Origin: Escherichia coli
GTDB lineage: Bacteria; Pseudomonadota; Gammaproteobacteria; Enterobacterales; Enterobacteriaceae
DNA length: 64,000 nucleotides
Assembly: GCF_041248615.1 (NCBI RefSeq)
Contig: NZ_CP158425.1
Reading direction: 5' to 3' (one strand)
The position numbers and the translations under genes are program-made. The notes beneath the pieces were generated by a model, which was given only the letters and a program-made list of their open reading frames with translations, ran no database searches and had not been told where the DNA came from. Shown here one piece after another: positions 15,288 through 60,440 of this stretch (its first letter is position 1; each line of letters begins with the position of its first letter).

Positions 15288-15502
15288 ACCCCACTCCTGT
15301 TATGTGCTCTACTGAACAAACACGTAGATCATACAGAGCTCACGGACGCACTCCTGCCAGATAAAGGAGGGAATTTGGCTGTAAGACGGTTAGCCAACAG
15401 TTCAGGTTATGCGTGGGATCCGGCCAGTCAGAAAGGATTCCGTTATTAACAGGCAAGGTTAAAGGCAGATGGACGTTGAAATTGTGGATGCTAAAAGGGG
15501 TA

Positions 15503-15784
15503 TTACTCTTTTTCCTGCATAGCGGCTTTTTCAGCCCGGGTGGCCAGGCGAGCATTTCCGAAAGGTTCACGGACAAGCAGGGGCTTCTCCTTCTTCCAGC
15601 CCCTGATAGCCGTTTCTCCAAAACGACGTGGTGCATTGCCGTTCCAGCGAGCAATCACATGATTATCATGAATTTCTATAATGACAACGGGGTGGACAAT
15701 GACCGTTGTAATGGTGGTATTTCCCATTTTGGTACGGGTTACAGACCAAACCTGCATCCCGGATTCCAGCTGGCTGATTTTCAT
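15503..15784 (-). CDS. hypothetical protein
   Basis: 93-aa ORF with AAGGA RBS; overlapping alternative frames judged less likely. Confidence 0.4.
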   Translation of the reverse strand: MKISQLESGMQVWSVTRTKMGNTTITTVIVHPVVIIEIHDNHVIARWNGNAPRRFGETAIRGWKKEKPLLVREPFGNARLATRAEKAAMQEKE

Positions 15785-16158
15785 ATTATATCCTTAAGCC
15801 AACACGAACTGCGCCACAAAAATTAATGTGGCGCAATTTACCATAAACAATAAACATCAGATACCCGTGAAGAGATTTCCCTTTATTTTAAAATTCTTCT
15901 GGAGAAAAAATGATATTTCCAGAAGAAGTCAGCGAAATTCAGAAACGGCCATCACAATGGTGCTGCGCTGACGCTGGCGTTCTGCCTTGCGCTGCCTGCG
16001 GCGATAGATCTATTTTGCGCTGACGTAAGGGCAGTCCTCACGGGTATACCAGCAGCAGCCGCAAGGTTCGGGCCGGGGTTTTCCGGCAAGTCCAAATGGT
16101 TTCATCAAGTCACCTTTTTAATATTTTTAATGGCAAGATACTTCCCTAACACATTGTT

Positions 16159-16470
16159 TTATCGCATATAACGCTGTTGCATAAACAGATACAGATAACC
16201 CTCAGGAGAAAACATGCAAAGGTTATCAGTGATAACCGCATCCAGATACCGAGTGTCAGTCTGTAAACGTTTTATCACCAGAAAATGTGCTGCCGCAGCC
16301 TTAATGCCAGAACTACCGTTTACAACATTATGTATACCCGCTTCGAATAACGAACGAGCATGAATTACCTTTTCCCGGGCCGCTTCGATCTCCGCATTAA
16401 TAACGCATTGCCGCGCCTGGATGACTGCCTCTCCGGTTAAATCGCGGAAATTCATTAGAGATGTGATCAT
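16159..16470 (-). CDS. hypothetical protein
   Basis: 103-aa ORF preceded by the GGTTATT box and TTATAAT. Confidence 0.45.
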   Translation of the reverse strand: MITSLMNFRDLTGEAVIQARQCVINAEIEAAREKVIHARSLFEAGIHNVVNGSSGIKAAAAHFLVIKRLQTDTRYLDAVITDNLCMFSPEGYLYLFMQQRYMR

Positions 16471-16692
16471 GATTAACTCTCCAGATTATGTGGAATCATT
16501 ATAACAACTGGCATCCCGCCACAAATAACCTGAGAAAAATTCTTTGAAATATTCCTATATATAAGGAATTACAGTCGGAAAAGAAACGATGAAATAGCGC
16601 CGACCGCTTAAAATCGATAAATTAAAATGGACGGCACTGGAATGAAAAACTGAAAGTAGTAAGACCGTAATTATCCTTCACGGATGTAAGCT

Positions 16693-16893
16693 TTATAAGA
16701 GGAGTACTGGCAAAGCTTTGCCAAGTACTTCGGCGGTTGTGTCTACGATTTTACGGATGTCATCGATCTGCGAAGGCTTATTCAACACCACCGTAAAAAG
16801 CTCTCCTTCGTTATCAGCCTGCTCGCAGTTTCCGTATCGGCTCCCGTCGTACAGCTGCACAATACGTGACATAGAAGACTTTGTTTGTTTCAT
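16693..16893 (-). CDS. hypothetical small protein
   Basis: 66-aa ORF. Confidence 0.35.
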   Translation of the reverse strand: MKQTKSSMSRIVQLYDGSRYGNCEQADNEGELFTVVLNKPSQIDDIRKIVDTTAEVLGKALPVLLL

Positions 16894-16932
16894 GGCTTTG
16901 CACCTGCTTTTAGGCAGTTTGGTTACTGGTTA

Positions 16933-17157
16933 TCAGAAGCTGGTTTCATGCGCTTCCGGCTGGGACACGAACTGGTATTTGACGCCGCCAGGCACACCTA
17001 CTGCTTCGGCAATAGAGTCGCAAAGCCGCGATAAATCATTTAGTGTCATCGGATATTCAATATCTACAGAATATAAAGCACCTGCATTTTCAGCATCTTC
17101 GATGTTTTTATACTGGGCACTAAATATAGCAATGGTCTGAATTTCGTGGTTATGCAT
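16933..17157 (-). CDS. hypothetical protein, paralog of 23435..23674
   Basis: Shares EYPMTLNDLSRLCDSIAEAVGVPGG with IEHPMTLNDLSLLCESVADAVGAPGG. Confidence 0.45.
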   Translation of the reverse strand: MHNHEIQTIAIFSAQYKNIEDAENAGALYSVDIEYPMTLNDLSRLCDSIAEAVGVPGGVKYQFVSQPEAHETSF

Positions 17158-17211
17158 GAACCGGTCCTTATTAAATTATAAAAGCCACCCGAGAGTGGCC
17201 TGAGTTGAAAC

Positions 17212-17415
17212 TTAAATCTGTGAAGTATTTTTGAGAGATTTTTTGCGATCCAGATGCCGGGCAACAATGGTTCCGATAACAAGTAGCATGATGACCGCAC
17301 TGAAGAAGGTGCTGTCAGGGACGCCCTGGAAAAAATCACTGAAACTGTAAACAATAAAAATCAATGCGCAAAAATAGAAAACGATACGAACATAAGGGGT
17401 AAAAAACATTTTCAT
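17212..17415 (-). CDS. small membrane protein
   Basis: 67-aa hydrophobic ORF. Confidence 0.4.
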   Translation of the reverse strand: MKMFFTPYVRIVFYFCALIFIVYSFSDFFQGVPDSTFFSAVIMLLVIGTIVARHLDRKKSLKNTSQI

Positions 17416-17594
17416 CGGTTGCCTTCCATTCAGGGAGAATTCTCAGTAATTACATCACACCTGAAGAGAAACTATTTTCGTATAAATGAGCATTTTCGAC
17501 ATATCAGAGGGGGGGTTTACTCATAAATGAGGTAGTAAGGGTCACACTTGAGGTGAAAGTTACTTTCCTGGCTGCGAACGAACTATCTCAAATG

Positions 17595-17888
17595 TTAGAG
17601 GTGTGCGTTCGCCTTGAGAGCCTCATGCCCTGAGGAGCTCAACTTGAGCCGATAGTATAAACCTGGCTCCAGATGGCTTGCTGGCTGGCATAACTCCACG
17701 AGGCCGAGCCGGAACAGGACCGGAGAGCTCCTGCACGTCACATCATCAGGATTCCCCATAAACGTACGCCGTTCTCTGGCCCGTCTGAAATTGCCAGAGA
17801 TATCATAGACCGTGCCGGATGCCATCCGTCGTAACACGTAAATCTGTGCCATTGTAAGCTTCTGGGCGGAACTGCTTAAACCTGACAT
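17595..17888 (-). CDS. hypothetical protein
   Basis: 97-aa ORF. Confidence 0.4.
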   Translation of the reverse strand: MSGLSSSAQKLTMAQIYVLRRMASGTVYDISGNFRRARERRTFMGNPDDVTCRSSPVLFRLGLVELCQPASHLEPGLYYRLKLSSSGHEALKANAHL

Positions 17889-18178
17889 ACCTTCCCCTCC
17901 TTATATAAAACAATCCGCCAGCAGCTCGACTGGCGGACAATGTTTGACTGGCAACAGCAAGGACATACTATTTAGTGACAAGTTTGATCTTGGTTTCACT
18001 CATTCGAAGTCGAAACTCCTGAAAACCCTGCTCTACCGCTAACTCCAGCCACTCAACGGGAATGGTATAGCTACAATCAGACCCACCCAAAGCGGCATCA
18101 CAAGCGTAATCCCAGTCCTCATCCTGAACCGCCCCGGGAATCCTGGAGACTAAACTTCCTGAGAAAGAGGTAAACAGG

Positions 18179-18505
18179 ATGACTAAAAATACTCGTTTTT
18201 CCCCCGAAGTCCGTCAACGGGCAGTCCGTATGGTTCTGGAAAGTCAGAGCGAATATGACTCACAATGGGCGACAATTTGTTCCATTGCTCCAAAGATTGG
18301 CTGTACGCCGGAGACTCTGCGTGTCTGGGTTCGCCAGCATGAGCGGGATACCGGGGGCGGTGATGGAGGGCTCACCACCGCTGAACGTCAGCGTCTGAAA
18401 GAGCTGGAACGTGAAAATCGTGAACTGCGCCGCAGTAACGATATCCTTCGCCAGGCTTCCGCTTATTTTGCGAAGGCGGAGTTCGACCGCCTCTGGAAAA
18501 AATGA
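18179..18505 (+). CDS. IS3-family transposase OrfA
   Basis: 108-aa product recognised from memory as IS629/IS1203 OrfA. Confidence 0.9.
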
Positions 18506-19392
18506 TGCCACTGCTGGATAAGCTGCGTGAGCAGTACGGGGTCGGACCGCTATGCAGCGAACTGCATATTGCCCCGTCAACGTATTACCACTGTCAGCAA
18601 CAGCGACATCATCCGGATAAACGCAGTGCCCGTGCGCAGCGCGATGACTGGCTGAAGAAAGAGATACAGCGCGTATACGATGAAAATCACAAGGTATACG
18701 GTGTGCGTAAAGTCTGGCGTCAGTTGTTACGGGAAGGTATCAGAGTGGCCAGATGCACTGTGGCACGTCTCATGGCGGTTATGGGACTTGCCGGTGTTCT
18801 CCGGGGTAAAAAGGTCCGTACGACCATCAGCCGGAAAGCCGTTGCCGCAGGCGACCGCGTAAACCGTCAGTTCGTGGCAGAACGACCTGACCAGCTGTGG
18901 GTGGCTGATTTTACTTACGTCAGCACATGGCGGGGCTTCGTCTATGTGGCGTTCATCATTGATGTGTTTGCCGGATACATCGTGGGGTGGCGGGTCTCAT
19001 CGTCCATGGAAACGACATTCGTGCTGGATGCACTGGAGCAGGCGTTATGGGCCCGTCGACCGTCCGGCACGGTCCATCACAGTGATAAAGGTTCTCAGTA
19101 TGTATCGCTGGCCTACACACAGCGGCTTAAGGAAGCCGGATTACTGGCATCAACAGGAAGTACAGGCGACTCGTATGACAACGCGATGGCGGAGAGCATC
19201 AATGGTCTTTACAAAGCGGAGGTAATACACCGTAAGAGCTGGAAAAACCGTGCAGAAGTGGAACTGGCCACACTCACGTGGGTGGACTGGTATAACAATC
19301 GACGATTGCTGGAAAGGCTGGGCCATACTCCTCCGGCAGAAGCAGAAAAAGCTTATTATGCTTCCATCGGAAACGATGATCTGGCAGCCTGA
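18502..19392 (+). CDS. IS3-family transposase OrfB (integrase core)
   Basis: 296-aa product; -1 frame relative to orfA with a poly-A stretch at the junction. Confidence 0.9.
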
Positions 19393-19434
19393 GTTCACAG
19401 ATAAAACACTCTCCAGGAAACCCGGGGCGGTTCA

Positions 19435-19772
19435 TCCAGTTTTGGATTCATCCCCTGGGCGTAAGCCACAGTATCGCGGGATGCGGGAGAGCCCTCAAGC
19501 TCAGCATTAGTGATCAGGTATACACCATGACTGTGCGCGAGAAGCACTTTTGGCACCAGATGTGTGCTGGCAATTTTTGAGGATGAGGGAAAGAAAACCC
19601 TACCAGCTTTACGCGCCTCTTCTTCAGTCTGTCCCTCAGCGTTAAGGAGGGCTCCCCCCGGATAGCATGCCGGGTCATAGATCTGATCTGCGGTGACCGA
19701 AAACGTTTTTGCGGTGCGAATTTCTTCGATCAGTTTATTAATATCCGCCATTTCAAATACGAGAGTGGTCAC
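19435..19772 (-). pseudogene. N-terminal part of a gene interrupted by IS629 copy 1 (remainder at 17968-18121)
   Basis: ORF 19395..19772 takes its last 13 codons and stop from the IS; removing the IS and one TCC restores an open frame to a stop at 17968. Confidence 0.4.
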
Positions 19773-19776
19773 AGGC

Positions 19777-20124
19777 TTACTCTCCCTCTTCAGTGGACAA
19801 CATCAGATACTTTGTTGCCAGCAGAAGCTCTCCCACATCCTTGAGGGACAATTCAGCTTTGCCTTCTACGGCAAGCTGCAAGCGCTGTCGAATTGCATGA
19901 ACAGAATCTGAAGATAAAGATGCCATTTTGCGCAAAACGGCATTAGCCTTTTCTACAGCAGGATACAGAATTTCTGAGTTGGTATTATCTTCGTCATTAT
20001 CAAAGATAATTTCAGAATCCATATTGATGTTATCTTCAAGCCAGCTTGAAAGCACTTCAAGTAATGACATCACCTTTTCAATTTGCATATCGCCTCCTCT
20101 GTTAATGTGAAACAAATATAACAA
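19777..20124 (-). CDS. hypothetical protein
   Basis: 115-aa acidic ORF with GAGGAGG RBS. Confidence 0.45.
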   Translation of the reverse strand: MLYLFHINRGGDMQIEKVMSLLEVLSSWLEDNINMDSEIIFDNDEDNTNSEILYPAVEKANAVLRKMASLSSDSVHAIRQRLQLAVEGKAELSLKDVGELLLATKYLMLSTEEGE

Positions 20125-41410: not shown

Positions 41411-42235
41411 TTGTCCTGTTTAAGTAACCAACCCGCTGCCGCCAGGCGGGTAAATCCTCTTAATGGAGTTTTAATGCAAATCTCAACTGAAGTTCTGAAC
41501 GTCTTATCTCGCTGCCGTGCTGAAGGGAACTTTCTTTTCCTGGCCGACCAGCTCGACCGCAGCATTTATGTTAAGACAAACAAAGTGCTGGAAGCTGCCG
41601 GTGGCAAATGGAACCGAAAAGAGCAGGCACATATTTTTACGGCGGATGCAGCTGAGCGTATCGAGCAAATCATTCTGACAGGTTCGGTCGACATCCCACG
41701 TGATTTGTTCAATTTCTTCCCTACCCCTGAGAATTTAGTCACAGATATGGTTCTACGCGCTGAACCAGCTGCCGGGGAACGTGTTCTGGAGCCTGAGTTT
41801 GGTGATGGCCGCATTCTGAAAGCCTTAAAACTGGCGGCTCCGGATGCATTGATTACCGGGATCGAATTGAACGATGAGCGATTCCTTGCAGTGAAGAACG
41901 ATAGTGTCCTTAGCACAGGGGCCGAGCTGGTGCATACCGACTTTCTTGGGTACCAGCCCGATGAAACTTTTGATGTTATCGTTATGAATCCACCATTCCT
42001 TAAACGCTCTGACGTTAAACATGTCATGCATGCCATCGCAATGCTCGCTAAGCGAGGTCGCTTACAGGCCATTCTGTCAGCTGGGGTATTGTTCCGGGAA
42101 GACACACTGACAAAAGCGCTCAGGGAGCGAGTCAAACAACTTGGCGGACAAATTTCGCCTCTTCCGGATGATACATTTAGGGAGTCCGGAACAAAGGTCA
42201 AAACAGCCCGCCTTGAAATTGATCTTCGCCGCTAA
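41411..42235 (+). CDS. N6-adenine-type DNA methyltransferase (NPPF motif)
   Basis: LEPEFGDGRIL (motif I), ITGIEL, VIVMNPPF (motif IV); paralogous to the domain in 54842..55840. Confidence 0.55.
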   Translation: MSCLSNQPAAARRVNPLNGVLMQISTEVLNVLSRCRAEGNFLFLADQLDRSIYVKTNKVLEAAGGKWNRKEQAHIFTADAAERIEQIILTGSVDIPRDLFNFFPTPENLVTDMVLRAEPAAGERVLEPEFGDGRILKALKLAAPDALITGIELNDERFLAVKNDSVLSTGAELVHTDFLGYQPDETFDVIVMNPPFLKRSDVKHVMHAIAMLAKRGRLQAILSAGVLFREDTLTKALRERVKQLGGQISPLPDDTFRESGTKVKTARLEIDLRR

Positions 42236-46269: not shown

Positions 46270-48115
46270 TGATTACGACAATGGGAGTGAGTGTCGAACC
46301 CCTTGAGTAAGGATACTTGGTAAATATACAGCCCCGGGGATTCTCTTCCTTCAACCGGGGATGACAACGGGAGTGAGTCCGGCAACTCACACCTGTTGTC
46401 ACTTCTCTGACATATCGTCATACGAGCTTACTCAAGCGCATCCACAAAGATGGGATCGTTTTGAATCTAAACTGGTACTGGTTAGCCAGTCACTTGCATC
46501 TACTCCCCCGTCGATATTTAAGTGACAATTGTAGTGATCTGCAATACTGGTGTCTCAGAAACACTGACGACGGTAGAGACTCAATACCCTAACCCCTGAC
46601 AACAGAAGTGAGCTTAGAGGTGTTACGCTGCTGTCACCTAATGCTTGGGAATTGCCTGACTCACAACCATTGTCATCCGGAGCTACTGATTAACGTTGAA
46701 CCGCTGGACTTTAATGACAGTGGTAGTGATGGATAGGCTCATTTCCATTGTCGTCATTTTATCGGACAAGCCTCTTCGTCCTACAGGTTTAAGCTGACAA
46801 TGGTAGTGATTGGATGATCTCACTACTGTTGTCACTCAGTTCTTTGAGCGGACCCTTCCCTCGGTTGGTCGGCATTAACAACGGTAGTGACTCGATTGGC
46901 TCACTGCCATTGTCATCGTGTAAATGACGTACCTTATCAGCTCAGCTGAAAGCAATGACAACGGTAGTGACTCTAATTGCTCACTGCCATTGTCGTCGTG
47001 TCTATTGAGAGCCTTATCAGTGCACCTGAAAAGCAATGACAACGGTAGTGATTCTAATGGCTCACTACCGTTGTCACCGTGTGTATTGAGAGGATGGTCC
47101 ACCTAACTGGACGTATATGACAATGGTAGTGACTTTAATAGCTCACTACCATTGTCGGTGTGTGAATTGAGAGGATGAGCAGCTCAGCTGTACGTCCATG
47201 ACAATGGTAATGACTTAATGAGCTCACTACCGTTGTCACCCTGTTAATTAAGAGGCTCATCTGCTCTTCTGGAAGGCTATGACAACGGAAGTGACTTGCT
47301 GGGCTCACTGCCATTGTCGCCGTATGAATTGAGAGGATCATCCGCTCTTCTGGATGGCAATGACAACGGTAATGACTTAATAGGCTCACTACCATTGTCA
47401 CCCTGTGAATTGAGAGGATGATCTGCTTAACCAGACGGCCATGACAACGGTAGTGACTTTCTGGGCTCAATACCGTTGTCACCCTGTGAGTTAAGAGGTT
47501 GACCCGCTCTACTGGACGGCCATGACAACGGTAGTCACTTTCTGGGCTCACTACCGTTGTCACCCTGTGAGTTAAGAGGTTGACCCGCTCTACTGGACGG
47601 CCATGACAACGGTAGTCACTTTCTGGGCTCACTACCGTTGTCGCCATATAGAATGAGAGGAGCATCAGCTCAACTGAACGGCAATGACTACAGTAATGAG
47701 CTGGATGAAGCATAACCATTGACATCTGGCCCAACCGGAAGCCGTATTCGCCAATCCAATCGAGATTCACAATGGCCGTGACTCGCCGCATTAAGTTCCG
47801 GTGTCCTCCCAAAGCTGAACGCACACTCGGAGGACAATGACAATGCCAGTAAGGTACACATCATTACCATTGTCACTATAGCTACCAGAGAAGCCGGGAT
47901 TTGAATGTCGATGGTAGTGAGTGGGTCAACTCACTGCCATTGTCACCCCGTTACGATATTTTCCGTTGGATGTACTGGCCAATGAAGTAAAGCGTAGAAA
48001 CCGGGTGTTAACAGGTGACTCAGGAGAAAGCGTTGAATTTCGCAATCTCGATCTACATAGGGTGGTAGAGAACAATGACAACGGTAATGACTTTTGACTC
48101 ATTACCGTTGACGTG
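46270..48115. repeat. array of about 20 palindromic iteron pairs with about 81-bp periodicity (incA-like copy-control region)
   Basis: Units ATGACAACGGTAGTGAC-8nt-CTCACTACCGTTGTCAC recur every 80-81 bp (47118, 47198, 47279, 47360, 47441, 47522, 47603 and others). Confidence 0.7.
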
Positions 48116-48187: not shown

Positions 48188-49276
48188 TTAGCTGGCGTTG
48201 CTGTTCTTTTTCTGGCTTCGAAGACTACGAATATAGCGCAGTTCTTCAGCGGTTAAATCATGGACGGTAAGAACATCATCGCCGTCAATCGGGTCAGCTG
48301 GTGGGCATAACTCACCTTCTAAAACAGAAGACCCTGAGTTCTCTTCTTCATCTTCAACCACTTCTAAAGGAGGCTGAGTATTGTTCAAATTCAGATCGGG
48401 ATCCCGCTTATGAATCTGGAAGTATACTTTTCCGTCTTTCTTAATTTCGGTGTACTTGAGGTATCCTATCGATGCCAACTCTTCAAGAGCCTTTCTCACG
48501 GTAGCATTCTGACTATTTGCTCGTGTTTTGAGGTTCAGACGATTTTTCAGCCGAGTAAGGGATATCGGTATAGGATTTGGCGGTAATGACTCTATGAACG
48601 TATAGAGAGCCTGGGCGCTTTCCTTCTTGGCCAACTCCTTAATTGCCTTCAGCTGCATCAAAACCTTATGATCGTATTGATAGAGCTCGAAAATCTTAGG
48701 ATCAACCTGAAGGACAACCTGATCTGATTCCGGGTCTAACAGGGCAGACTGTACCAGATGCGTTGTATAGACTTTGGACGAGTTATTACTGGTGAACGAC
48801 AAGGTAACGGATGCTAACCTGCGTAAGGAGGCGTCTATACGTTTTCTGGACGCTGTAGATGAGCGATAATTTTCAGGCGTACATAGCTTGAGGAATTCAG
48901 TGAATTTTAAGCTTATCGTGTCATTGTTAATCGGATGATTGGCATAGGTTCGAATGATGCCCATCCACGTCTTAAAATCTACTGACATATTAAGACGCTC
49001 ACCGACAATTGAAATATTGGTGAACCCCTCGCTCTCCATTAAAGAGAGCGTCTGTAACTCTTTCGTTGCGTCAAAGCCAACCGTTTTATATTCCCGATTT
49101 TGACGCCCCACACTCTTTGGTGATGGGACGAACAGCCCGAGCCGCATCAAAGCAATAGACTGCACCGTACGGTTGCTGTTAGGACGCAAAATGATGTCTT
49201 TACCTGATTCTTTCTCTCTAACAGAGAAAGCCCTGGTGACCAGGTCCTGCTGCTCAGTATCTTTCTCTTTAGTCAT
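48188..49276 (-). CDS. repA: replication initiator RepA, P1/RepFIB family
   Basis: TVQSIALMRLGLFVP, DFKTWMGII, LYQYDHKVL, ALYTFIESLP and IGYLKY match P1 RepA blocks recalled from memory; iterons on both sides. Confidence 0.85.
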   Translation of the reverse strand: MTKEKDTEQQDLVTRAFSVREKESGKDIILRPNSNRTVQSIALMRLGLFVPSPKSVGRQNREYKTVGFDATKELQTLSLMESEGFTNISIVGERLNMSVDFKTWMGIIRTYANHPINNDTISLKFTEFLKLCTPENYRSSTASRKRIDASLRRLASVTLSFTSNNSSKVYTTHLVQSALLDPESDQVVLQVDPKIFELYQYDHKVLMQLKAIKELAKKESAQALYTFIESLPPNPIPISLTRLKNRLNLKTRANSQNATVRKALEELASIGYLKYTEIKKDGKVYFQIHKRDPDLNLNNTQPPLEVVEDEEENSGSSVLEGELCPPADPIDGDDVLTVHDLTAEELRYIRSLRSQKKNSNAS

Positions 49277-54841: not shown

Positions 54842-55909
54842 TCATAGGACTTCCTCTTGTTGAATACGTTCGGCGTACAGGATGCGAACCGAAACGGTCG
54901 TGTTTTCAAACTCGTTCTCAAAAACGTCCATCCATTCCGTCCGGAATTCTTCCCCCAAAAGGTTATCGAGCCCCTGAAGAGATAATGGAAGAACGGCTGC
55001 TAGAGATCCCCCGGCTGCGAGATGAGATGCAGCTGCCTGGAGATGCCGCCTGGCCCGGTTATCGGCAAAAGGTGGGTTCATCACGACATAATCAAACTTC
55101 TTCTGTTGATTAGACTTAGACCATGTGAGGAAGTCAGCTTCTGTCGTATCGTATCCCTTAGCCCGGGAGATAAGGCAATTCAAAGTATCAAGCTCGATGC
55201 CAGTAACGATCACACCGGCAGGGAATGATTTAAGCAAATCCGCATGGCCAATATTAGGCTCCAGGAGGGTATCCCCTTCCCCTGCACCAAGCAGGGAAGA
55301 TACATATTCGCTGATTCGGCAAGATGAAGGGTAAAACTGATGCGATACAATATCAGGCATCTCCCCTATCTGGCCGATGTAACGAATAACCTCACACGGA
55401 TCATAGGAAAATGTCACATCGTATTTTGTTACTGTTGCCCCTAAGAACCGAAGGGTGTCAGCGGCAACACTCGAAGATTTGCGTTCGGCGAGAGACCCTA
55501 AAGATGTCCAGCAACTCCATTTATTGTCCCCGTCATTTTTAAACATCAGTTCAGAAAGCTGCATCCGGGTATCAAAGTCGATGCACTGCTTAAGTACAGG
55601 GAATGCCTCCAAAGATTTCTTGCTATGAGCCATACGGTCGGCAGGTAATGCCAGCGGTACGATAGCTGATAAAATATTGTTAAGCCGCTCGGCGATATCA
55701 GGGTGGACGTCAATATGCATTGATCCATTTTTGTAAACCCTGAAACGAATACTGTTGCCATCGATGCAGATCCATTTTCTGAACCCCTCATGTTCGACCA
55801 ACGCCTCAACCAATGATTTGGTGTTATGGATCGCCTTCACCTGTTCGCCACGGAAGAATGCGCATATAACGCGGAGCTCGCTCAGCGGTGAAATGCCAGA
55901 CTCTTTAAA
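54842..55909 (-). pseudogene. C-terminal methyltransferase domain of a gene split by IS629 copy 2
   Basis: EPNIGHADLL, TGIELD and VVMNPPF motifs; no ATG start (track start is GTG); frame open upstream to the IS boundary. Confidence 0.55.
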
Positions 55910-55967
55910 ATCCTGAACCGCCCCGGGAATCCTGGAGACTAAACTTCCTGAGAAAGAGGTAAACAGG

Positions 55968-56294
55968 ATGACTAAAAATACTCGTTTTTCCCCCGAAGTC
56001 CGTCAACGGGCAGTCCGTATGGTTCTGGAAAGTCAGGATGAATATGACTCACAGTGGGCGGCAATTTGTTCCATTGCCCCAAAGATTGGCTGTACGCCGG
56101 AGACTCTGCGTGTCTGGGTTCGCCAGCATGAGCGGGATACCGGGGGCGGTGATGGTGGGCTCACCAGCGCTGAACGTCAGCGTCTGAAAGAGCTGGAACG
56201 TGAAAATCGTGAACTGCGCCGCAGTAACGATATCCTTCGCCAGGCTTCCGCTTATTTTGCGAAGGCGGAGTTCGACCGCCTCTGGAAAAAATGA
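55968..56294 (+). CDS. IS3-family transposase OrfA
   Basis: 108 aa, nearly identical to 18179..18505. Confidence 0.9.
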
Positions 56295-57181
56295 TGCCAC
56301 TGCTGGATAAGCTGCGTGAGCAGTACGGGGTCGGACCGGTATGCAGCGAACTGCATATTGCCCCGTCAACGTATTACCATTGTCAGCAACAGCGACATCA
56401 TCCGGATAAACGCAGTGCCCGTGCGCAGCACGATGACTGGCTGAAGAGAGAGATACAGCGCGTATACGATGAAAATCATCAGGTGTACGGTGTGCGTAAA
56501 GTCTGGCGTCAGTTGTTACGGGAAGGAATCAGGGTGGCCAGATGTACAGTGGCGCGCCTCATGGCGGTTATGGGACTTGCCGGTGTTCTCCGGGGTAAAA
56601 AGGTCCGTACGACCATCAGCCGGAAAGCCGTTGCCGCAGGCGACCGCGTAAACCGTCAGTTCGTGGCAGAACGACCTGACCAGCTGTGGGTGGCTGATTT
56701 TACTTACGTCAGCACATGGCGGGGCTTCGTCTATGTGGCGTTCATCATTGATGTGTTTGCCGGATACATCGTGGGGTGGCGGGTCTCATCGTCCATGGAA
56801 ACGACATTCGTGCTGGATGCACTGGAGCAGGCGTTATGGGCCCGTCGACCGTCCGGCACGGTCCATCACAGTGATAAAGGTTCTCAGTATGTATCGCTGG
56901 CCTACACACAGCGGCTTAAGGAAGCCGGATTACTGGCATCAACAGGAAGTACAGGCGACTCGTATGACAACGCGATGGCGGAGAGCATCAATGGTCTTTA
57001 CAAAGCGGAGGTAATACACCGTAAGAGCTGGAAAAACCGTGCAGAAGTGGAACTGGCCACACTCACGTGGGTGGACTGGTATAACAATCGACGATTGCTG
57101 GAAAGGCTGGGCCATACTCCTCCGGCAGAAGCAGAAAAAGCTTATTATGCTTCCATCGGAAACGATGATCTGGCAGCCTGA
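56291..57181 (+). CDS. IS3-family transposase OrfB
   Basis: 296 aa, nearly identical to 18502..19392. Confidence 0.9.
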
Positions 57182-57223
57182 GTTCACAGATAAAACACTC
57201 TCCAGGAAACCCGGGGCGGTTCA

Positions 57224-57847
57224 ATCCACCCTTAATTTCTGCCAGGGGTATTTAGACGGCTCGCAAACTCCGGTAGTGATCATGCGGGTGGAGAACCCAA
57301 AAGCTTTGTTTGTCTTGTGACTGCGGCTCAGAGACTGGAAGACGTCGTAAACCCTTTCTTTAATAAATTGATTGCGGTCATTAAGCAAAGCAACGACTGT
57401 GCCCACTACAGCGTCAGCTGTGAAATCAGGGATCACCTGAGGCGGCATAATATAACGGTCGGCCGTAAACTGCTTATCCCATTCGTTACGTTTGGCATCC
57501 GACATGATAGGCAAAACATCAGTGAGTGCCATAACGCGTTTCCAGTATTCTGATCTCAGAGCGTTTTCTGCGAACAAGGCATCCGCTTCTGAGATGCTGT
57601 GGTTGTAGCCTGAGAGATAAGAATAAAGTTTCTGGTGATTGTGGGTTTTGAACTGGACAGCCATGAGTTTCAACAAGCAGAGTTCATCATTATAGGACTC
57701 AACAAGATCCGCGATAATGCCGAGCTCTTTGCGCATATCTGGAAGAAATGTTTCAGGAGAGCTAACCACCAGGCTATGAGAGGTTGTTAAAGCCAGTACG
57801 CTGTGACCTGCATTATCGGGTTTAGCTTCAGAATCAAGAGATGACAT
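57224..57847 (-). pseudogene. N-terminal part of the gene split by IS629 copy 2
   Basis: ORF 57221..57847 takes its stop codon from the IS terminus. Confidence 0.5.
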
Positions 57848-57978
57848 TTTACCGGTCCTTTAGAAAAAACTTTTACCAGGATAGCAACGTCGCTCAGTAA
57901 CCTAATAGGTTCAGTGACACGAAAAAGTTTTTTATGTCTCTGAATAAAACTTAAAGATGTCAACTCATAGAAAGAAGC

Positions 57979-58005
57979 AAAAAAAAAGCCCCGCATAAAC
58001 GGGGC
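57979..58005 (-). terminator. rho-independent terminator
   Basis: GCCCCG-CATAAA-CGGGGC stem with a 9-nt T-run on the minus strand, downstream of the ParB-like gene. Confidence 0.6.
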
Positions 58006-58094
58006 AAGAACGATACATGGAGGTTTAAAAAAGGCGGGCAAAAAGCCTGAATCCTTAATGACTCTGACAAAACCAGCACTTTGCCAAAAGTAAA

Positions 58095-59258
58095 TTATTC
58101 TGCGTCCGGCTGTGGGTCAGTATCCTGATCGGTCTCTTCCCCTGCCTTCTTAGCATTTTTTTTACGTGGGTATTTTGGCTTCTCACCATTAAGTTTTGCC
58201 TGACGATTCTCCGCACGGCGAAGCTGCTTGTTCTCTGATTCTGTGATCTCTTTTGAAAGATTTCTCAACATCTCCAGAGTACTGCGGTTCAACGTAATGT
58301 TGATTTCTTCGTCAGCACTTGAATCTGTCAGCTCCGGCAATTCAATATCCCCCAGTTTCTGTAATAAGCTGGTGGTGATGAGTTTGACGCCTTCTACGGC
58401 TTTTGTGGCAATAACCGGCGGAATCCGTGCTGGCTTGAAGTCTGAAGGTCTGACTCGTACCTGACCATGTTGGGTTTTTTTCACCGTGATGCCATTCGCA
58501 TCGGCCTGCTCAAGTTCTGCGATCATCTTCTTGATACGTGAAATTGCTTCTGTTTCGCCGAGCTCATCGATCAGTGAAAGCACGTTAACATACGAAATAG
58601 CGTCAGCATGAATCCATTTCTTGATAACAACAGAACAGGTTGTCAGGCGGATAAGAGAACTGATGGTCGTCGGGCTTTTATTTTCACGTTGAGCAATTCG
58701 TTCGAGTGACCAGCCAGCAAGAGAATGTAGGCGACGATAGGACTCGCCAAGCGCAACAGGAGAAAGCGCAAGACCACGGTTACCATCAATGGTCGCGAGC
58801 TCACAGCCAATTTCATCTTCTTTAATCTCAACGCAAAGGATTGTGATGTCATGATCTTCATCACATGCCATCATTGCGGCTTTTAAACGGCAGTGCCCCT
58901 GGCGAACAAAAGGTACCCCATCAATGACACGTACTCGGATAGGGTCTACATAGTCACCTCGAATGTAGGCATTCTTGATGTTGTAGATGTGTTCTTCAAC
59001 CTCAGGGAGCTTATAGTAATCGTCACCCATTCCCATTTCGCGGGAGTTGAAGCCTGGCGTGACCTGAATTACTGAAGGGTGGATAGCCCATGCTTTCTGG
59101 TCACTTACTTCAGTACAAAGTTCAGGGTTTGCATCACGGAACTGTTTAAGCCCAGTGACGTAACGGCCTGTGCCAGTAACTACTGAAAAGGCAACATGGG
59201 CCGTTTTAAAGACCTTGTCATTAGCTTGCTGTGTAGGTTCTGTCAGTAAAACACTCAT
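58095..59258 (-). CDS. ParB N-terminal domain protein, paralog 2
   Basis: GFNSR and IDGVPFVRQGHCR motifs; upstream of the IS-split methyltransferase gene. Confidence 0.6.
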   Translation of the reverse strand: MSVLLTEPTQQANDKVFKTAHVAFSVVTGTGRYVTGLKQFRDANPELCTEVSDQKAWAIHPSVIQVTPGFNSREMGMGDDYYKLPEVEEHIYNIKNAYIRGDYVDPIRVRVIDGVPFVRQGHCRLKAAMMACDEDHDITILCVEIKEDEIGCELATIDGNRGLALSPVALGESYRRLHSLAGWSLERIAQRENKSPTTISSLIRLTTCSVVIKKWIHADAISYVNVLSLIDELGETEAISRIKKMIAELEQADANGITVKKTQHGQVRVRPSDFKPARIPPVIATKAVEGVKLITTSLLQKLGDIELPELTDSSADEEINITLNRSTLEMLRNLSKEITESENKQLRRAENRQAKLNGEKPKYPRKKNAKKAGEETDQDTDPQPDAE

Positions 59259-59606
59259 AGGGGCTCCGTTACATTTTTCTGCTTACTTTCTGCGTAGCGG
59301 GGATACTACCGAAAAAAAAATTCATAATTTTTCGCAAAAAAGGTACTTTTTGAGCCTATTCTGATTTTTTACAAAAAAAGGTGGCTCCCCATTACTTGTG
59401 ATGGCATAAAAATCGCTTCATAAACAAATACATAAATCCAAAACATAAAGTTCAGGTATAAGTGAGGAAAAATCTTATAAATCCGAAATGCTGAAAGTCA
59501 AAACTGTGCGTCTTAAACAACTTTTTTTTGCTCCCTAAGTTATTAGTTAAAGCCCGTGGTTAGGTACGATACCAGCACCTAAATTTCTCTCTCAGGTATA
59601 GACACT

Positions 59607-60440
59607 TTGACTCGACATCTCAGACACATGCCGATAATCAAATGGGCTGGTGGAAAAACGAAACTGATGCCTTTCATCAGCCATCACTACCCACACGATC
59701 ATAGTTGCCGGTGGGTAGAACCCTTTATAGGCGGTGGTGCCGTTTTTCTGAACATGTTTGCACAAAATGCATTGCTTGCAGATAGCAATCCAGACTTGAT
59801 CAACCTATACAGGACTATTCAAAGACAGAAAACTAACTTTATAAATCAGGTCCAAAACTTGGCGGATAAAACCTTTGTCGAAAAGGACTACTATGAGATG
59901 AGGGACCGTTTCAACAAAACCTGTATTTCTGGTCAATCGCTTCAAAGAGCGGCTTTGTTTTACTCCCTGAATCGCCTGGGCTATAACGGTATGTGCCGCT
60001 ATAACTCAGAAAGAATCTATTCAGTGCCGTGGGGGAAACATACAGAACTGAAGCTTGACCTCAATAAAATAGACTACCTTTCATTTCGTCTTTCAGGTAT
60101 TGAACTGATCACCGCTGGTTTTGAGGAGACTCTGGCCGCAACCGGTGAAGGAGATCAGATTTACTGTGATCCGCCATATGACAAAACAAGCAAAACTAGT
60201 TTTGTCAGTTACGATGGTAAACCGTTCAGCCAAAGCGACCACGTGCTGTTAGCAAATATGCTCGTTGACGCTCACAGAAAAGGCGCTGCTGTTGCGATAT
60301 CAAATAGCCTGACATCATTCACTTTGGGCCTCTATGAAGAGCGTGGATTCGTCATACACAGACTCAGCGCTTACCGATCCGTAGGAAGTAAGCCGAATAC
60401 ACGGAAAACGGAAACAGAAATACTGGCCGTGCTGAAATAG
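59607..60440 (+). CDS. Dam-like (D12 class) N6-adenine DNA methyltransferase
   Basis: IKWAGGK and DPPY motifs. Confidence 0.8.
   Translation: MTRHLRHMPIIKWAGGKTKLMPFISHHYPHDHSCRWVEPFIGGGAVFLNMFAQNALLADSNPDLINLYRTIQRQKTNFINQVQNLADKTFVEKDYYEMRDRFNKTCISGQSLQRAALFYSLNRLGYNGMCRYNSERIYSVPWGKHTELKLDLNKIDYLSFRLSGIELITAGFEETLAATGEGDQIYCDPPYDKTSKTSFVSYDGKPFSQSDHVLLANMLVDAHRKGAAVAISNSLTSFTLGLYEERGFVIHRLSAYRSVGSKPNTRKTETEILAVLK

Follow-up and report, generated by a model that had tools for sequence, protein, structure and literature searches.

The IncHI2A plasmid p14408_M1 of Escherichia coli carries two copies of an insertion sequence (IS), one on each side of its replication initiator gene, and the locus thus raises the question of whether the two copies were inserted independently or form the ends of a single large mobile unit. 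The window analysed here, a 64-kb stretch of DNA, is the final 64 kb of NZ_LT599829.1 (p14408_M1, E. coli NRZ14408), with which it is identical in sequence; a position in that record minus 174,073 gives the window position used throughout this text. p14408_M1 is a 238-kb conjugative plasmid, and its record is flagged as linear and not circularised. The 31-nt end motif of the IS occurs exactly twice in the window, at 18125 and 55914, both times on the plus strand, and the segment enclosed by the two copies contains the replicon, as the first-pass annotation had pointed out: the repHI2 replication initiator gene is located at 48188–49276 on the minus strand in the RefSeq annotation of the source record. 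The same annotation had favoured independent insertions while keeping a composite element as a formal alternative. As described below, p14408_M1 has almost certainly received two separate simple transpositions of IS629, by two different alleles, into an IncHI2 plasmid backbone.

Copy 1 (18125–19434, plus strand) is a complete 1310-bp IS629 of the IS3 family, and copy 2 (55914–57223, plus strand) is a different allele of the same length; both were delimited by the end motif search and by alignment of the two copies with each other. From a comparison of both ends, the terminal inverted repeats of copy 1 were placed at 18125–18149 (left; TGAACCGCCCCGGGAATCCTGGAGA...) and 19410–19434 (right), both listed on the plus strand. 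The element begins with TGAACCGCCCCGGG... and finishes with ...CCCGGGGCGGTTCA, the repeats being imperfect (23 of the 25 outermost bases match) and the termini being TG...CA. The ORF list contains two genes on the plus strand, namely orfA (18179–18505; 108 aa), which encodes an HTH_Tnp_1 DNA-binding domain (Pfam PF01527, 49 bits), and orfB (18502–19392; 296 aa), which lies in the −1 frame relative to orfA and encodes a DDE integrase core (Pfam rve, 97 bits) that scores 314.6 bits against the NCBIfam model for IS3 family transposases (cutoff, 160). The two genes overlap, and RefSeq gives 18179–19392 as one frameshifted IS3 family transposase. A programmed −1 frameshift signal at 18460–18576 (plus strand; Rfam RF01497) is made up of an A6 slippery run (18497–18502) and an ALIL pseudoknot, the latter being matched over its full length with 120.2 bits (gathering score, 50). 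With an inverted repeat at either end, both genes, the A6 run and the ALIL pseudoknot all present, the IS629 found here is intact. Members of the IS3 family produce an OrfAB transposase by −1 frameshifting, transpose by copying themselves out as a circle that is then pasted in, and duplicate 3–4 bp of the target. By analogy with these family members, the element would have been moved by a fused OrfAB transposase, the product of a −1 frameshift, in a copy-out/paste-in manner through a circular intermediate.

The name IS629, already used in the first pass, was tested by proxy, with depositor-annotated elements standing in for the ISfinder reference sequence. Copy 1 shares 99.5% identity over the full 1310 bp with features annotated as 'IS3 family IS629' in two Stx-phage records (LC567824.1 and LC567828.1), and this near-identity justifies the label. 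Agreement with IS629 and the IS3 family was found in every property compared, i.e. length, inverted repeats, orfA/orfB with the frameshift signal, size of the target-site duplication and near-identity to named copies. Structurally, nothing distinguishes the element from the IS629 of E. coli O157:H7, Shigella and Stx phages, which has the same length of 1310 bp, inverted repeats, orfA/orfB genes, frameshift site and ALIL pseudoknot and the same duplications of 3–4 bp. IS1203 and IS3411 have been described as isoforms of IS629 (PMC3271280), and the two alleles on p14408_M1, which differ at 21 nucleotides, fit the IS629/IS1203 sub-types and isoforms described in that study.

The gene interrupted by copy 1 encodes a protein with a DUF3085 domain. 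When the IS and one TCC were deleted in silico, the truncated ORF was joined in frame to a TAG stop at 17968–17970, and the resulting 163-aa protein has exactly the sequence of WP_001424592.1, which is annotated in IS-free plasmids as 'DUF3085 domain-containing protein'. The 5′ part of the gene (19438–19772, minus strand), which comprises a GTG start and codons 1–112, encodes the first 112 residues of WP_001424592.1 without any change, and the 3′ part in the rebuilt frame (17968–18124, minus strand) comprises 51 codons and the TAG stop, one TCC copy included. The 3-bp duplication is located at 18122–18124 on the left and at 19435–19437 on the right of the element, and the empty site of the relatives contains a single TCC. 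Because excision restores the DUF3085 gene of IS-free plasmids, the earlier proposal that copy 1 interrupts a gene and is flanked by a 3-bp TCC repeat is upheld; the proposed in-frame join to the stretch ending at 17968–17970 was likewise correct, but this stretch consists of 51 rather than 52 codons and the protein of 163 rather than roughly 165 amino acids. The last three bases of the IS (TCA) are the same as the three target bases preceding TCC (CCTCATCC; 18119–18124 and 19432–19437), so that the empty-site alignments overlap by 6 bp and the exact boundary between the IS and the duplication is slightly ambiguous.

On these data, copy 1 inserted between plasmid codons 112 and 113 of the DUF3085 gene, its orientation being opposite to that of the gene, with duplication of TCC. 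The split gene now stops after 12 IS-encoded codons, its 51 C-terminal residues being gone. What is present in the sequence is a chimeric truncated ORF of 125 aa (19395–19772, minus strand), which appears in the ORF list and in RefSeq as the hypothetical protein WP_251002579.1: codons 1–112 are derived from the plasmid, codon 113 consists of two nucleotides of TCC and one of the IS, and codons 114–125 and the stop are provided by the right end of the IS. The first pass had assigned the last 13 codons and the stop to the IS and was therefore accurate to within one split codon, with 12 full IS codons and codon 113 divided between the two sources. Because the TCA at the IS end equals the target bases before TCC, the chimera retains the native Asp113-Glu114 by chance. 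The rebuilt protein matches Pfam DUF3085 (PF11284) with 39.4 bits (cutoff, 25) over residues 74–160, corresponding to positions 1–87 of the 88 positions of the profile. As the domain spans these residues, IS629 copy 1 cuts it near its middle, and the residues lost amount to more than half of the only recognisable domain of the protein. Judging from this truncation, the product is most likely inactive, although the 125-aa chimera could still be partly active. Polar effects of the insertion on whatever lies downstream are probable as well.

The upstream neighbour of the DUF3085 gene (19777–20088, minus strand) is annotated as DUF957, and the pair is intact in the IS-free plasmid pEGY1-MCR-1. The DUF957 stop is located 4 nt ahead of the DUF3085 start, and because of this short gap the two genes probably form one operon. 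The DUF957-annotated product had no Pfam match at E ≤ 0.01. Directly downstream of the DUF3085 gene lies an ATG-initiated ORF of 97 aa (17595–17888, minus strand), which is unannotated in both the source record and pEGY1-MCR-1 and also had no Pfam match at E ≤ 0.01; provided that this ORF is a true gene, the IS would exert polarity on it. As for the DUF3085 protein itself, no relative was found in the PDB (best match, E = 0.74), no NCBIfam family matched and the literature contains no published function. A 2026 survey of Pfam families, in which DUF3085 is listed as of unknown function, ranks it first for enrichment in conjugative plasmids of broad host range (PMC12826799).

Copy 2 is located in a gene for a DUF4942/N6-methyltransferase and is bounded by a 4-bp duplication, ATCC, at 55910–55913 (left) and 57224–57227 (right), which is represented by a single ATCC in the empty site. 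The rebuilt frame joins a 5′ part (57228–57847, minus strand) to a 3′ part (54842–55913, minus strand) and encodes a 563-aa protein that contains the Pfam DUF4942 and methyltransferase domains and is identical to WP_032084800.1 of pEGY1-MCR-1. Database comparison of the reconstructed junction proteins thus gave an identical known protein for both the 19772-to-17968 join, for which such a check had been suggested in the first pass, and the rebuilt copy 2 gene. Like copy 1 in its own target, copy 2 split the DUF4942/methyltransferase gene with duplication of ATCC; we infer that the methyltransferase has been inactivated by this insertion and that downstream ORFs are likely hit by polarity.

Empty counterparts of both sites are found in about a thousand plasmids each. 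A 622-bp query for site 1, lacking the IS and containing one TCC, matched 1005 plasmid records, 998 of them at a query coverage of at least 80% and 580 at an identity of at least 99%. Among the matches listed, identity is 100%, all plasmids are of the IncHI2 type and come from Escherichia, Salmonella, Enterobacter and others, and the gene is annotated as DUF3085. The empty site 2 was found in 1107 plasmid records, with matches at 100% identity and with the gene annotated as DUF4942. In these relatives, the two empty sites have the same order, orientation and spacing as in the window. The plasmid pEGY1-MCR-1 (NZ_CP023143.1), an IncHI2 plasmid with no IS629 copy and with a single TCC and a single ATCC at the respective sites, is collinear with the window over 15358–18124, 19432–55913 and 57223–59985; over the 36,482 bp that separate the IS sites it shows one mismatch, and outside them it is 100% identical. 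It thus has the same backbone (15358–59985) and gene order as p14408_M1, but its DUF3085 and DUF4942 genes are intact. Because of this collinearity, the 36.5-kb interior including repHI2 must be native backbone rather than a passenger. No other plasmid in the collection has an IS at either exact site, which indicates that both insertions are private to p14408_M1 and probably recent. Two apparent full-coverage matches for the copy 2 site turned out to contain IS1203 at other positions and are not shared insertions.

A tandem array with a period of 81 bp (46871–47699; about 10.3 copies, 78% matches) was found in an unannotated gap that is bordered by a gene for a protein with Ig-like domains on one side and by repHI2 on the other. 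The array is also present in pEGY1-MCR-1, and it may function in the RepHI2 replicon as iterons or as a control region.

These comparisons also bear on the alternative in which a 39-kb composite transposon, consisting of two IS629 copies and the 36.5 kb between them including repHI2, was inserted once into ATCC and split a single gene extending from 57847 to 17968. ATCC does stand both to the left of copy 1 and to the right of copy 2, as noted in the first pass, and joining these outer flanks yields an open frame of 262 codons. However, all four flank joins (left and right flanks of copy 1, left and right flanks of copy 2, left of copy 1 with right of copy 2, and left of copy 2 with right of copy 1) are open in frame, and for this reason an open frame across a junction is no evidence either way. 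The same applies to the open frames of the two reconstructed genes, cited earlier in favour of independent insertions: they are real but do not discriminate between the readings. A search of 72,556 plasmids found the two outer-flank halves together in 1127 records, and in none of them (0/1127) are the halves contiguous; they map to two separate places in all 1127. The other observations point in the same direction: each copy has its own direct repeat (TCC for copy 1 and ATCC for copy 2), as the first pass had recognised, and the interior, far from being foreign to the replicon, is the IncHI2 backbone itself. With the outer flanks joined in none of these records and the interior native, the composite element is refuted, and its probability is negligible.

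Misassembly is another explanation that has to be considered, since assemblies are notoriously prone to mis-joins at IS copies and the record is flagged as linear, and a repeat-mediated mis-join could have placed one or both copies. Such a mis-join would not create target duplications, whereas the direct repeats around each copy match perfectly and have the size that IS629 is expected to produce, and excision restores the reference gene exactly at each site. The two copies are, moreover, distinct alleles. An assembly artefact is therefore very improbable. A reading in which IS629 was acquired once and then transposed within the plasmid, the 21 differences between the copies arising afterwards, would account for the fact that the copies share a molecule and an orientation and that both targets contain TCC. 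It is no more credible than an artefact, because 21 substitutions in 1310 bp, compared with one mismatch in 36.5 kb of backbone, would imply an implausible rate of change in place. The distribution of the differences also speaks against it: all 21 lie within IS positions 124–644, i.e. in a 521-bp stretch (18248–18768 in copy 1 and 56037–56557 in copy 2), and the 3′ 666 bp are identical, a pattern that is mosaic and not clock-like. At the protein level, three amino acids are changed in OrfA and four in OrfB.

Furthermore, the copy 1 allele occurs with 100% identity in many unrelated E. coli genomes, as does the copy 2 allele, in chromosomes as well as plasmids. Because each allele circulates unchanged in unrelated E. 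coli, the 21 differences must predate both insertions, and their clustered, mosaic arrangement suggests that IS629/IS1203 sub-types recombined in the past, and not that the copies diverged on the plasmid. The earlier remark that the copies have diverged by several amino acids was thus right in that seven residues differ, but the two are separate circulating alleles and not products of divergence after insertion, which supports independent acquisition even more strongly. Two independent simple insertions remain the reading favoured by the empty sites, by the collinearity of pEGY1-MCR-1 and by the separation of the outer-flank halves in every record.

All four flanks of the two copies read (A)TCC; a priori, 3-mers without any relation to each other would agree in about one of 64 cases. 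The duplications of IS629 have a published length of 3–4 bp, and the element is considered to have no defined target sequence (PMC3271280). We surveyed 63 distinct full-length IS629 sites, obtained from a scan of viral contigs and from two plasmid loci. Matching flanks were found at 36 of them (34 duplications of 3 bp and two of 4 bp) and at none of the remaining 27, a share similar to the 21 of 47 sites with duplications in O157 genomes (PMC3271280). The duplicated triplets are diverse. A left flank ending in TCC was found at four of the 63 sites against about one expected (binomial P of about 0.017, calculated post hoc). A target specificity for TCC was considered and found unconvincing: TCC is the duplication in only 2 of the 36 duplicated sites, and for this reason the shared TCC is not taken as a sign of specificity. 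The shared (A)TCC is best treated as a coincidence, at most helped by a weak preference.

A weak palindromic bias was observed at the 3-bp sites of the survey, position −2 being occupied by C in 19 of 34 sites and position +2 by G in the same number (a small sample, examined post hoc). Site 1 (C-A-TCC-A-G; 18120–18124 and 19435–19439) fits this C/G bias, and site 2 does not.

Insertions of other elements, or at other positions, were found in the same backbone genes of related plasmids. In the IncHI2 plasmid NZ_CP101211.1, an IS1 is inserted in the DUF957 gene beside the DUF3085 gene (1360–2453 of the extracted locus L127), and in the IncHI2 plasmid NZ_CP149172.1 the same gene contains an IS5 (1365–2634 of L128); both differ from the present case in IS family and in site. 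NZ_CP122916.1 carries an IS1203 elsewhere in the DUF4942 gene (1834–3106 of L005), about 200 bp from the copy 2 site and with an ATA duplication, and in NZ_CP085189.1 an IS1203 with an AAG duplication is located in a nearby intergenic region, at a site that differs from both of those described here. The recurrence of IS insertions in the same probable operon, i.e. of IS1 and IS5 in the DUF957 gene, supports dispensability, and the DUF957 and DUF4942 backbone genes are evidently dispensable and repeatedly targeted by IS elements.

Several other genes in the 64-kb window were recorded. Four of them encode DNA methyltransferases (29492–30742, 41474–42235, 54842–57847 and 59628–60440), the set comprising a site-specific methyltransferase, a 'methyltransferase', the IS-split DUF4942 methyltransferase and a Dam family methyltransferase; others encode an HNH endonuclease, a large protein of the PAPS-reductase family, a Hok toxin and a RelE/ParE toxin. 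This set of genes seems to be connected with anti-restriction or with the establishment of the plasmid. A hypothetical protein of 93 aa encoded at 15503–15784 carries the PLSDB resistance prediction 'Brucella suis mprF, 100% identity'; this label looks like a spurious database annotation, with no real mprF gene behind it.

The finding has practical consequences for the reading of this record and of similar loci. WP_251002579.1 and the fragments annotated as 'methyltransferase' and 'DUF4942' are parts of IS-split pseudogenes and not new genes. The locus also illustrates that a comparison of empty sites together with collinearity can settle the choice between independent insertions and a composite transposon, and that an open frame over a rebuilt junction can be uninformative. 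Broader interpretations can be imagined. The direct pair of IS629 copies, although acquired separately, could henceforth mobilise the enclosed 36.5 kb, repHI2 included, like a newly formed composite transposon, and a circle carrying repHI2 could be released or deleted by homologous recombination between the copies. Separately, the DUF3085 gene might have been lost under selection and not neutrally, an idea tied to the enrichment of this family in broad-host-range plasmids (PMC12826799). Taken jointly, these are improbable. The locus is a case in which a commonplace insertion has inactivated an accessory gene that the plasmid can do without, a routine event involving an annotated IS in a public plasmid. 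As the two insertions show, the DUF3085 protein and the DUF4942 methyltransferase are dispensable for the upkeep of p14408_M1 in its host.
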